Assembly (NCBI GenBank): GCA_046483845.1 | Contig: JAWOCK010000027.1 | Span: 11,738 to 75,737 of the forward strand | From: Thermoplasmatota archaeon | Lineage (GTDB): Archaea; Thermoplasmatota; Penumbrarchaeia; Penumbrarchaeales; Penumbrarchaeaceae | Reading direction: 5' to 3' | Length of the DNA stretch: 64,000 bases | Shown here: positions 42,565-48,894 of the stretch, one piece after another | Numbering within the stretch: the stretch's first letter is position 1 | Layout of the letters: each line of letters opens with the position of its first letter | The notes under the pieces: model-generated | The model's database searches: none | What the model was told of the DNA's origin: nothing | Seen by the model: the letters and a program-made list of their open reading frames with translations, nothing else | Program-made: the position numbers and the translations under genes

Positions 42565-45500
42565 ATGGCATCCATGGAACCTGCCGACCCCCGAACATGT
42601 GAACCCGAACCCGCTCAATCATATCAGTCGCGAGATTCAAATGACACCCTCTTCTCCGAAGAATTGTACAATCAGAATCTATCTGATGTTTCCGCTTGGG
42701 TCGAGCAGGCGGGAGGAGATTCTCAAAAGGCCTTTGCACGTGTTCTGATCGTCAACAACGGTCTATCGGCATTGCGTATCATTCAGGGGATCACATCCCT
42801 ATCCAACCTGATCTCCCAGGGTAAAGATGCTAACCTCATTCAAGCTGTGGCCATCGCCTCTGACGCAGATTGGGTTGGTGATTGTCCGGAAGATGCTATG
42901 CAGCGACCCAACTATTTAAAAGAACCCGATACAATAGTTGCCCGAATTCCCGGATCACGACCCAAGGACACCTATCAAAACCAGGATGAGGTAATTGCTA
43001 TCGCCCGAGAATACAGGTGCGATGCCATTGCTGTGGGTTGGGGGCACCTTGCTGAGAATTCCACCTTTGCCTCCCGCGTGGAGAAGGAGGGATTGATCTT
43101 CATCGGGCCACATGCAGAGGCGATGAGCCTGATGGGTGACAAGATCATGTCAAAGCTCATCATGGATAAGGCAGGGGTCCCGATGCTTCCCTGGAACGGA
43201 TCAAACATATCCCTCTCTGAGATCAGATCGGATGCAAAGGACCTGATCAAAGCCCGGGAAGAAGAGGAGGGCCCTCTTTCGGATACTGACAGATACGGCA
43301 TACTATTTGATCTGGCCTATGAACGGGTGGGAATAAAAAGCATTGAAACGGCCCGTTCAGTTATAAACTCAATAGACCTGCCCGTTGTCATCAAGGCCAC
43401 TGCAGGCGGAGGCGGTCGCGGTATTCGTTTCATCACAAATGACAAAGACCTAGAATCAGGATTGAATGCTGCTGTCTCCGAGGCATCAGCTGCATTCGGG
43501 AACGATACGGTCTTCATAGAAAAAGCAGCAGACCCTGGCTCGCGGCATGTGGAGGTCCAGATCCTGGCGGATACTTCTGGGACAGTGATAGCCCTCGGTG
43601 AGCGTGAATGTTCTATCCAGCGTCACAATCAGAAACTGATCGAGGAAAGCGGTGATGACATTCCCATAAGCGATGGGACCCGGCAGATCCTCAGAAGATC
43701 TGCCGTAGCTGCGGCAAAAGCTGCCAAATATGTGAATGCCGGAACCGTGGAATTCCTTGTTGATAAAGAGGGCAACCCATATTTCATGGAGATGAACACC
43801 AGGCTGCAGGTGGAACACATTGCCACGGAGGCAGTGTATCCCGGACTCGATCTTGTGGTAGAGCAGCTGAAAATTGCCATGGGGATCCCACTTGACCATG
43901 AATTGATATCATTAAGTGATTCCCTCACGACGGGAAAGCACAGTATTTCCGTTCGAATAACTGCTGAAAATCCCAATGCAGGTTTCAGTTCTCAAACCGG
44001 CACCATCGAATCACTCGACATTCCAAATCTGGGCCCAAACACACCTCGAGCATATTTCAGTTTCTCTCAGGGAGGAACCGTTCATTCCTTTGCGGACAGT
44101 CAGATCGGGCATGTGGTGAGCAGTGCACCAACCCGTGAGGTAGCAAGACAACATATGGTGGCATTTCTGAACAAATTACGCATCAAAGGTATCCTTACAA
44201 CCCTTCAATTCTCGTCTGCGATAATGCAGGATGCAGAGTATATTGACGGCACCGGCATCCATGTTAACTGGCTCAAGCAGAGGCTCGATGACGCTCGATC
44301 GAAGGTGGGCGCATACCTTGGGGGCTCAACCGTTAAACCCGAGCTGGGACTGGCGGCGGTTGCCATACTCGATTATCTCTTCGGGAAGGCAGAATCACAG
44401 AACAAGTTCCATGCCAATCTCTTATCCTCAAGGTCGATCCCTCCCAAACTCCTTGCGAACACAGGACTGACCCGTGTGAGATTCGGTGAACATCATTACA
44501 CTGTCATCGTTCGTGAGATAGCTGATGAGCGTTTTGAACTGATCCTTGGCAATGACCGGATCGTTGTCCGGTTCTGGGAACGTTTAGGTCCATCCCGTTT
44601 CATGATGGAGTACGCTGGTATGGTATACCAGATCCACCGGATAGATGAAACCTCCAGAACCCATATTGAAGTGGGCGGGCACACCTTCACCTTCGAGCGA
44701 GACCTTGACCCAGATGTATTTCGGGCACCTATGGCAGGAATTATTTCCTCTGTCGAGGTCGAGTCCGGGCAAACAGTTGGCTTGAAGGATACCTTATTTA
44801 CCATGGAAGCCATGAAAATGATCTCTTCCCTTGATTCTCCAAGGAATGCAACCATTGCAGAAGTTTATGTAAGTGCAGGTTCCGTTGTTGAAGTGGGAAC
44901 TCCGCTGCTCAAATTTTCAGAATCAGAGACTTCAGAATCGAAGAAGGGATCACCCTCCTCCGGAGCTGATACGGAAAAGAAAGGAACCCGTCTACATTTC
45001 AAGCATGATGTGACAGATCTGTCTTCCAGGCTTGAGAGAAAGTGGGCTGAGAATGGTGATCTCAAGATCTCCATAAATAATGACGATATCAGGACCTTGA
45101 TTGGAAATATCATGCGTGGTTATCAATATTCAAACCACTTTCTATACCTGCTGACAAAAGAGCTCACCGATATGAACGAACGGCTGGGTGACGAACAGTG
45201 GATATCTCTTGTCCGAGATACGATAGAAGCATTTTACAAGGATGAGCAATATTTCAAAGGGTCCACAACTCTAACAGAGGGACTATCCATTGCAGAAATG
45301 GAAGCTGGCATAACAGATGGTGATAAGTATGATATCGCCCGCTCCCACGGGAATTTACGTTCCAAGAAGATAGTGCTGCTAGAGTTACTTGAGCCCATTT
45401 CCTCAATGGATTTCGAATCCATTGTGCCCTATCTGAAAAAGCTGACAGAGCTGGGTTATTCATATAATTACCGCGATCTATCCACCCGTGCGGAGGAACT

Positions 45501-48500: not shown

Positions 48501-48894
48501 GATCAATCCTGACAAGATCGTCCTAATTGCTGATGAGCATGCGACCGGATCCATCCTTGAACCGTCTGGAATGGAGTCTGTTCCACTTATCCGGAGGCAG
48601 ATCAAGCGCGACATGATACAGCAGGATCCAACCCTGTCAAGATTATACGGAAACCGGACAAGATATGCCACGCAGATGGACCGTATCAAACAGATCGATC
48701 AGCAGATAGAGGAACGAGAGGCAGAGATCTGGCCGGAATATGTTAAAAAATGGACAAAGATCTTCCGGTTGCACAATACTGCAGAGCGGATGGGTGCTCT
48801 TGGGATCGCAGGGGAAGTAGTAGAGACGTCAAAGGCCCGTGAGGCGATCTTCAGAAATCTCATGAGTGGTCTGGAAAGGATCGACAATAGCTGA
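42565..48894 (+). CDS. acc: Eukaryote-type single-chain multidomain acetyl-CoA carboxylase (biotin carboxylase + BCCP + central region + carboxyltransferase), 2109 aa
   Basis: BC domain: [84 protein letters not shown]. BCCP: biotinyl-Lys motif EAMKM. CT domain: [40 protein letters not shown] and [13 protein letters not shown]. Domain order and length match eukaryotic ACC, not the bacterial multi-subunit type. Confidence 0.85.
   Translation: [2109 protein letters not shown]

Follow-up and report, generated by a model that had tools for sequence, protein, structure and literature searches.

We analyzed a stretch of 64,000 nucleotides from a Thermoplasmatota archaeon (positions 11,738 to 75,737 of the forward strand of contig JAWOCK010000027.1, assembly GCA_046483845.1; hereafter the window), in which a sequence-only reading had pointed to an open reading frame (ORF) carrying biotin carboxylase (BC), biotin carboxyl carrier protein (BCCP, with the motif EAMKM), a long central region and carboxyltransferase (CT) in the order found in the eukaryotic acetyl-CoA carboxylase (ACC) ACC1. 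The ORF listing of the window places at 42565..48894 of the plus strand one uninterrupted, ATG-started ORF of 2109 amino acids (aa); database gene calls (NCBI, Logan) begin three codons downstream at Met4 (nt 42574), giving a product of 2106 aa (P0001). Six Pfam domains follow one another on this single chain in the order BC (three models), Biotin_lipoyl, ACC_central and Carboxyl_trans, and Pfam and phmmer agree on the arrangement that had been read from the letters. Given that a 6.3-kb ORF carries six domain matches in order, a chance origin is far excluded, and the ORF listing, Pfam and the database gene calls together define the complete reading frame of a single-chain ACC.

The BC domain (residues 57-571; 42733..44277) consists of Biotin_carb_N (57-187), the ATP-grasp CPSase_L_D2 (257-445) and Biotin_carb_C (463-571), and alignment reveals an insertion within it at about residues 214-255 (43204..43329), between 'LPWNGS' and the ATP-grasp. 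Its motifs GGGGRG (281-286), H328/E330, K357, E409-MNTRLQVEH-418 and R464 do not vary among 15 archaeal orthologues with identities down to 44%, nor do the residues E409, N411, R413, Q415 and E417. The BC-CT interaction (BT) region, at about residues 580-715 (44302..44709), aligns with the BT of human ACC1, and in the orthologues it gives weak or faint matches to ACCA_BT (PF21385). The BCCP domain (residues 718-783, PF00364; 44716..44913) holds the biotinylation motif E748-A-M-K751-M752, invariant among the archaeal orthologues, with the biotinyl-lysine K751 at nt 44815-44817. Both CT subdomains lie on the one chain (residues 1508-2095; 47086..48849; Pfam and alignments), the match to Carboxyl_trans (PF01039, E 3e-87) spans profile positions 4-486 of 493, and the motifs GSGARIG (1555-1561), NWRGFAGG (1925-1932) and RGGAWVV (1969-1975) are conserved. 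We take the catalytic roles of these motifs to be those of their counterparts in Escherichia coli BC and yeast CT, and on this basis no element of the biotin-carboxylase mechanism is missing from the chain. A phmmer search of all PDB sequences returned human ACC1 (763 bits) and yeast ACC (689 bits) as the best matches, human ACC1 aligning in three collinear segments (BC-BT-BCCP, 46-799; central domain, 1163-1617; CT, 1624-2096), while NCBIfam gave only sub-threshold matches to subunit models and no equivalog. The blocks that had been quoted as resembling fungal and animal ACC are all present in the translation.

Since sequence comparison covered the linker between BCCP and CT only in its C-terminal half (Pfam ACC_central, PF08326; best stretch 1082-1375, E 6e-39), we modelled residues 800-1510 with AlphaFold2 from an alignment of nine archaeal orthologues. 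The model, of moderate confidence (mean predicted local distance difference test score, pLDDT, 67.5), consists of an N-terminal helical bundle followed by alpha/beta units. Foldseek against the PDB revealed that the top 31 matches are all ACC central domains, from yeast, Chaetomium and human (E 1.7e-28 to 1e-8; for example 5i6e, E 8.6e-23 over 727 columns), the next match reaching an E-value of only 7e-3. The global TM-scores of the model are low (0.27-0.34); it supports the same domain folds as in ACC central domains, in a subdomain arrangement that is not necessarily the same. Pfam, the AlphaFold2 model and Foldseek together place this non-catalytic central domain (CD) at about residues 800-1500 (44962..47064). 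As the CD between BCCP and CT is a conserved fold, it does not represent an assembly junction.

The genes around the ORF had been described as archaeal, and each of the features named was recovered: FEN-1 (XPG_N/XPG_I; 3116-4162, minus strand), NAC (6959-7309, minus strand), a UbiA prenyltransferase (2234-3097) and a cytidylyltransferase/NMNAT-like gene (24314-24829), and an intron-type tRNA gene of 117 nt (33232-33348, plus strand) that matches the Rfam model over all of its 71 positions and escaped ARAGORN, which fits the presence of an archaeal intron. DnaK, DnaJ and GrpE are encoded in the window as well. The GC content of the ACC gene (0.491) is close to that of the other genes in the window (0.485), and its codon preference correlates with theirs at r = 0.85, within the range of its neighbours (0.73-0.93). 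Given that the window comes from a metagenome and was judged from assembled sequence, we considered an assembly or binning artefact, by which eukaryotic or bacterial DNA ended up on an archaeal contig or misassembly made one gene of separate subunit genes. The same protein is encoded in NCBI assembly GCA_964459425.1 and in an independent Logan assembly of SRR31818008 (loci L072 and L073), where the matches to the window cross both gene borders at 99.6% and 99.9% identity, respectively; with 81 and 11 mismatches these two assemblies are not copies of the window, and both keep its flanks, with Fer4_5 and cupin genes upstream and B12-radical SAM and fructose bisphosphatase (FBPase) genes downstream. 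MFO8050701.1, labelled 'Thermoplasmatota archaeon', is a third record and belongs to a contig of 80 kb, and full-length orthologues occur on more than 15 contigs (NCBI, ENA, JGI, Logan), flanked by prokaryote-style gene arrays. These repeated junctions, the orthologues, the composition of the gene and the conserved fold of the CD make an artefact hardly credible and speak against the chimera or frameshift-free fusion that the sequence-only reading had named as the alternative to its proposal. As far as the sequence data go, we rejected chimeric assembly, contamination, artificial fusion and a pseudogene.

One scan of the species representatives of GTDB found orthologues in 13 loci from 12 metagenome-assembled genomes (MAGs), 11 of the loci at 76-84% identity and two at about 50%. 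The MAGs are labelled Thermoplasmatota, Thermoplasmata or Thermoplasmatales, one (L007) is labelled only 'uncultured archaeon', and one (L004) is named EX4484-6; the archaea carrying the gene come from sediment and seawater. The class EX4484-6 was recently described as Ca. Penumbrarchaeia (PMC12220078), which is probably the class of the host clade. In a word-indexed search the archaeal clade spans 44-100% identity, with a sharp fall beyond it: the next relatives, mostly eukaryotic, share about 27-34%, and are followed by bacterial ACCs of ~1850 aa at about 380-408 bits. Pairwise ratios of nonsynonymous to synonymous substitution (dN/dS) among the archaeal orthologues are 0.08-0.16, which indicates purifying selection, and the clade retains 58 of the 61 alignment columns that are at least 93% conserved among 118 other single-chain ACCs. 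Only one of the loci (L005) has flanking genes in common with the window, and no recurring partner gene was found in six annotated gene contexts (±10 kb), so that operon context gives no clue to function. The same scan also matched Prevotella MAG loci (L015, L016, L019 and others), in which query residues 59-1980 were matched within only ~3.2 kb; these Prevotella/Bacteroidales matches are short fused BC...CT carboxylases that have no central domain.

Together, the domain order, the fold of the CD, the additional assemblies, the MAG loci, the composition and the signature of selection bear out the proposal of a single-chain ACC of eukaryotic architecture in an archaeal genome. We put at about three in four the probability that the product of the ORF is a working acetyl-CoA carboxylase, dependent on biotin and made as one chain of eukaryote-type architecture, which is native to a Thermoplasmatota clade and is encoded by a stand-alone gene. 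In this enzyme, the BC domain would use ATP and bicarbonate to carboxylate the biotin on K751 of the BCCP, which would swing the carboxybiotin to the CT domain for transfer of CO2 to acetyl-CoA, yielding malonyl-CoA, while the BT and central domains would act as a scaffold. The gene would have been gained once by the ancestor of the clade through an ancient inter-domain transfer, and thereafter inherited under purifying selection.

The protein was compared with known carboxylases. Human ACC1 and ACC2 and yeast Acc1p (PDB 6g2d, 8xkz, 5csl) are likewise single chains, of ~2100-2400 aa, with the same order of BC, BT, BCCP, five-part central domain and CT, a BC insertion at the same position and catalytic motifs in common, among them NWRGF and RGGxWVV, and they are the best matches in both sequence and fold. 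Overall identity is nevertheless only ~30%, and the archaeal ACC differs in that it has no CT insertion, carries Met or Leu in place of the Arg of 'YDPR', contains an additional insert (DADWVGDC), has a longer BC insertion, and is encoded by an intron-free, prokaryotic gene. Over its first 45 residues it gives no alignment with human ACC1; the N-terminus of human ACC contains an AMP-activated protein kinase (AMPK) phosphorylation site, and a further regulatory site of eukaryotic ACCs is a serine in a loop of the central domain. Single-chain bacterial multidomain ACCs of ~1850 aa (Acidobacteriota/Terriglobia, Actinomycetota, Myxococcota) have all the Pfam domains in common with the archaeal protein but are set apart from it by a long branch with 100% support, by the lack of the BC insertion, by shorter BC and CT domains and by different CT motifs (SAGA[KR]I, LANLSGFDGS, RYHGGA[YF]VVF). 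The acetyl/propionyl-CoA carboxylase of the 3-hydroxypropionate/4-hydroxybutyrate (3HP/4HB) cycle of Sulfolobales also carries out biotin-dependent carboxylation of short acyl-CoAs in an archaeon, but it distributes BC, BCCP and CT over three subunits and has no central domain, whereas the protein described here is one chain; archaeal BC has been reported as always a separate subunit, and the known archaeal multi-subunit enzyme accepts both acetyl- and propionyl-CoA (PMC3199775). We also considered and ruled out the mycobacterial type, given the order BC, BCCP, CD, CT found here. Single-chain carboxylases of that LCC type are arranged BC, CT, BCCP and have no ACC central domain.

The remaining counterparts are rare long ACCs from uncultured bacteria (P0021, 2053 aa; P0314, 2081 aa; P0027, 2342 aa), which lie on contigs of bacterial type, have the same architecture including ACC_central, branch in a similar way at the base of the eukaryote-type ACCs, are the reciprocal best non-self matches of the archaeal ACC, and like it have no CT insertion, at an identity of ~29%. 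Unlike the archaeal gene, which stands alone, they adjoin genes for a holo-acyl-carrier-protein synthase (ACPS), a glycerol-3-phosphate acyltransferase (GPAT), a diacylglycerol acyltransferase (DAGAT), thiolase or biotin ligase: ACPS, a thiolase and a PlsB-like GPAT come after P0021 (L079:6909-17289), a biotin-protein ligase comes after P0314 (L085:3290-10301), and P0027 lies 6 kb from a DAGAT-type acyltransferase (L083:2042-15944), so that these bacterial long ACC loci lie beside lipid or cofactor genes. The serine hydroxymethyltransferase (SHMT) encoded next to P0021 is at most 65% identical to anything named and has its best matches in bacteria of the FCB group, which shows the host to be bacterial. 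A further locus, on a 28-kb contig (Logan SRR22388166; L084:250-17434), encodes an ACC of 2394 aa (P0147) that falls at the base of the eukaryote clade and has the CT insertion. Next to it on the same strand, with gaps of 96 and 43 nt, come a 132-aa phosphopantetheinyl transferase (PPTase) of the ACPS type and a type I fatty acid synthase (FAS I) of more than 3154 aa. This FAS I is a single chain of the fungal/CMN type (SAT, Fas1 helical, FAS_meander, MaoC, Acyl_transf_1, Fas_alpha_ACP), and the locus is an operon-like ACC-PPTase-FAS I cassette.

To place the archaeal ACC among its relatives, residues 910-2109 were searched with HMMER against 1.84 billion cluster representatives, among which the archaeal clade is reduced to one representative and two fragments. 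Nearly all the other top-150 matches that were placed in trees belong to the eukaryote-type group, with representatives from birds, nematodes, fungi, Amoebozoa, Naegleria, Andalucia, Galdieria, Cyanophora, a prasinophyte, Blastocystis, oomycetes, diatoms and Amoebophrya. A neighbor-joining (NJ) tree of 127 full-length sequences (1621 columns, 100 bootstraps) recovered the archaeal clade as monophyletic with 100% support, and a second 100% clade, without archaea, comprising the 93 sequences of the eukaryote group and spanning animals, fungi, Amoebozoa, Discoba, Archaeplastida, stramenopiles and alveolates. Archaea and eukaryotes were grouped at 70%, with the bacterial P0021 and P0027 next, and the whole group of long ACCs was split from the bacterial ACCs of ~1850 aa by a branch of 1.09 substitutions per site with 100% support. 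Maximum likelihood (ML) placement with custom code (exchange matrix derived from BLOSUM62, with observed amino acid frequencies and four gamma rate categories, +F and +G4) on 32 taxa and 1679 columns left two positions 3.5 log-likelihood (lnL) units apart, sister to P0021 and P0027 and sister to all eukaryotes, with support from resampling of estimated log-likelihoods (RELL) of 0.56 and 0.38, respectively; with 38 taxa the same two positions tied at 0.7 lnL (RELL 0.53 and 0.42), and a Poisson model gave the same picture.

These trees bear directly on whether the gene came from a eukaryote by recent horizontal transfer, for instance from a protist or fungus in the same sediment. Such a transfer would fit the observations that the best-scoring relatives outside the clade, both in solved structures and in databases, are eukaryotic ACCs and that the BC insertion is common to archaea and eukaryotes. 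Attachment of the archaeal clade inside the eukaryotes, however, cost 248 lnL or more with 32 taxa and 271 with 38 (RELL 0), and was rejected in every domain partition (26-129 lnL per domain, RELL 0). In the same direction point the 100% NJ bootstrap for a eukaryote clade that excludes archaea, the absence of the eukaryote-specific CT insertion, the native codon use, and an identity of ~30% to any eukaryote compared with 44-100% within the archaeal clade, and a recent eukaryotic origin is therefore very unlikely. 'Eukaryote-type' is accordingly a label for architecture and not for descent from any sampled eukaryote. As to where the protein nests in an ACC phylogeny, which the sequence-only reading had proposed to check, it falls within neither the eukaryotes nor the ~1850-aa multidomain ACCs of actinobacteria and acidobacteria, and constitutes a separate archaeal clade that branches at the base of the eukaryote-type ACCs, beside a few rare bacterial long ACCs. 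We conclude that the archaeal ACC is a deep lineage at the base of eukaryote-type ACCs, with two candidate sister groups that tie; this lineage would have diverged close to the base of the long ACCs, outside the eukaryotic crown group and in the vicinity of the rare bacterial long ACCs.

Insertions and rare residue changes were then compared with these placements. The BC insertion, of ~40 aa in archaea, is present in 13 of 14 aligned sequences of the eukaryote clade (8-26 aa, mostly ~20), the Andalucia row having almost none and P0272 being truncated, and is absent from P0021, P0027 and ten bacterial ACCs of ~1850 aa. The CT insertion, which follows 'YDPRxxL', is absent from all five aligned archaeal sequences and present in all 14 sequences of the eukaryote clade that cover the site (of 15; the Catenaria row begins inside the motif), P0147 included. 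Residue 1828 (nt 48046-48048) occupies the position of the Arg in 'YD[PV]R', which among the 118 other single-chain ACCs is conserved to at least 93%; it is Met in the window, Met or Leu in the whole archaeal clade and Leu in the bacterial P0021. Residue 1924 (nt 48334-48336) is changed from Ala to Pro in archaea, P0021 and P0027, and 'EGSGAR' is common to archaea and the bacterial long ACCs. The eight-residue insert DADWVGDC in the N-terminal BC subdomain (about residues 100-107; window 42862-42885) is found in the archaeal clade only. The rare changes thus split in the same way as the domain partitions, the BC state going with eukaryotes and the CT states with bacterial long ACCs: with the BC and BT/BCCP partitions the archaeal clade comes out preferentially as sister to eukaryotes (RELL 0.67-0.77), and with the CD and CT partitions as sister to the bacterial long ACCs (RELL 0.85 and 0.97-0.99, respectively).

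This split is what has to be weighed when asking whether archaea obtained the gene from bacteria with long ACCs of the P0021/P0314/P0027 type, in which case the likeness to eukaryotes would reflect a shared bacterial pool and no special link between archaea and eukaryotes. The CD and CT partitions, Pro 1924, 'EGSGAR' and, with P0021, the loss of Arg 1828 speak for such a source, as do the lipid and cofactor genes beside the bacterial long ACCs and a reciprocal search with P0021, in which after its own relatives the archaeal ACCs were the best matches at 677 bits compared with 551 for eukaryotes. The preference of the BC and BT/BCCP partitions for eukaryotes and a BC insertion confined to archaea and eukaryotes speak the other way, and the test on the whole protein is a tie (0.7-3.5 lnL). 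We regard a bacterial source as falling just short of an even chance; it is compatible with a functional ACC native to the archaeal clade.

Several points weigh against the assignment of the ORF as a native, functional acetyl-CoA carboxylase, or limit how far it reaches. A near-universal CT arginine is replaced at residue 1828 across the archaeal clade, and a literature search on the active-site arginines of yeast CT returned nothing; the catalytic Arg1954 of yeast presumably corresponds to the conserved R1927 (in NWRGF) and not to residue 1828. The N- and C-terminal halves of the protein give conflicting sister groups, and since the trees consist of NJ under a simple model and a custom ML placement, long-branch artefacts may affect the base. 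The assignment of the host clade to EX4484-6 rests on the name of one MAG, L004. We infer enzymatic activity, acetyl-CoA as the main substrate and a single acquisition from sequence, and the preference for acetyl-CoA over propionyl-CoA or other acyl-CoAs is not readable from it. In the six annotated contexts, we found no malonyl-CoA consumer, PPTase, biotin ligase, thiolase or FAS within ±10 kb, and when ACPS, thiolase, GPAT, DAGAT, biotin ligase and type I FAS from the bacterial loci served as tblastn queries, none of them was detected in ~430 kb of related archaeal loci, KAS III, ELO, type III polyketide synthase and malonyl-CoA reductase lying outside that search.

The sequence-only reading had further proposed that malonyl-CoA serves fatty-acid or polyketide chemistry or a mixed membrane, and had suggested a search of the genome for its consumers. 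Such a search was made in the surroundings of the gene and the ~430 kb of related loci, and as no malonyl-CoA consumer lies near the gene at any locus, the proposed use is unsupported. Conceivable sinks for malonyl-CoA are the synthesis or elongation of fatty-acyl chains, the supply of acetoacetyl-CoA to isoprenoids by an NphT7-like route, 3-hydroxypropionate chemistry and polyketides. The lack of a consumer nearby also raises the question of whether the physiological substrate of this single-chain acyl-CoA carboxylase is not acetyl-CoA, being for instance propionyl-CoA from amino-acid fermentation that is converted to methylmalonyl-CoA, or whether specificity is broad. The lineage has been described as a degrader of protein and amino acids, with MAGs that have 0-3 'fatty acid biosynthesis' genes (PMC12220078), the archaeal multi-subunit enzyme uses acetyl- and propionyl-CoA alike (PMC3199775), and the CT domain carries the substitutions R to M/L at 1828 and A to P at 1924. 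This CT is nevertheless closest to those of bona fide ACCs, 58 of 61 near-universal ACC positions are retained, and no methylmalonyl-CoA mutase or epimerase lies nearby; we therefore consider another substrate unlikely, and retain acetyl-CoA carboxylase as the assignment.

Other features of the window were recorded along with the ACC. A gene for a B12-binding radical SAM protein with DUF4070 (49140-50618, plus strand) begins 245 nt downstream of the ACC gene and adjoins it only in the near-identical assemblies, not at the other orthologous loci. The DnaK/Hsp70 gene (11640-13844, minus strand) encodes 734 aa with weak C-terminal zinc-ribbon matches at residues 702-732. The GC content steps near 16 kb from 0.41-0.44 (window 1-16000) to about 0.49-0.53 (16000-34000), the low-GC part containing FEN-1, NAC and DnaK/DnaJ/GrpE. 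Four large ORFs of 609-1004 aa have no Pfam match (26694-29708, minus; 30686-33163, plus; 22-2343, plus; 5059-6888, minus), the first two of which have counterparts with 34-36% identity in the same order upstream of the ACC gene in L005. A Glucodextran_B/coiled-coil gene (35535-37736) contains internal repeats, seen as off-diagonal matches of 74-95% identity between window 35691-36665 and L072:3076-4250, and the window and L072 differ by ~100 nt within it.

As far as is known, the acyl-CoA carboxylases of archaea are all multi-subunit enzymes, and archaeal membranes consist of isoprenoids. Full-text literature searches found no paper describing an archaeal single-chain ACC, in agreement with the suggestion that the enzyme had gone undescribed; the text of the Ca. 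Penumbrarchaeia paper contains neither 'carboxylase' nor 'malonyl', and the portion of its supplement text that was searched contains no acetyl-CoA carboxylase, KEGG identifier of that enzyme or 'malonyl' (PMC12220078). Homologues are public and partly annotated automatically, for example by JGI as 'acetyl-CoA carboxylase/biotin carboxylase 1' for P0012. We regard the protein as a further representative of a known kind of enzyme, in a domain of life where it was not expected and at a point of the tree that is informative. How the fused eukaryotic ACC arose has been left unsettled in published work, as it forms an isolated, divergent group on a very long branch (Lombard and Moreira 2011, PMC3199775), and it is near the base of this branch that the archaeal clade and the bacterial long ACCs attach. 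Owing to their intermediate states, with the BC insertion present and the CT insertion absent, the archaeal sequences can polarise how the eukaryotic enzyme was assembled.

If a whole clade of archaea keeps, under selection, a conserved enzyme predicted to form malonyl-CoA at high capacity, it should also have a use for this product. In a protein-amended enrichment, one member of what is probably the host class reached ~90% relative abundance (PMC12220078), which makes lipidomics, proteomics and labelling feasible. It is possible, though we hold it to be rather doubtful, that among surviving prokaryotic ACCs the Thermoplasmatota protein is the nearest sister of the eukaryotic enzyme, in which case prokaryotes, including archaea, would have possessed the full enzyme with its CD and BC insertion by about the time of eukaryogenesis or earlier, and in these archaea it would supply malonyl-CoA for fatty-acyl or other malonyl-derived products. 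If this is true, archaea that use malonyl-CoA for fatty-acyl chains would cross the 'lipid divide'. Since it branches outside all sampled eukaryotes, the archaeal ACC bears on the source of the eukaryotic enzyme.

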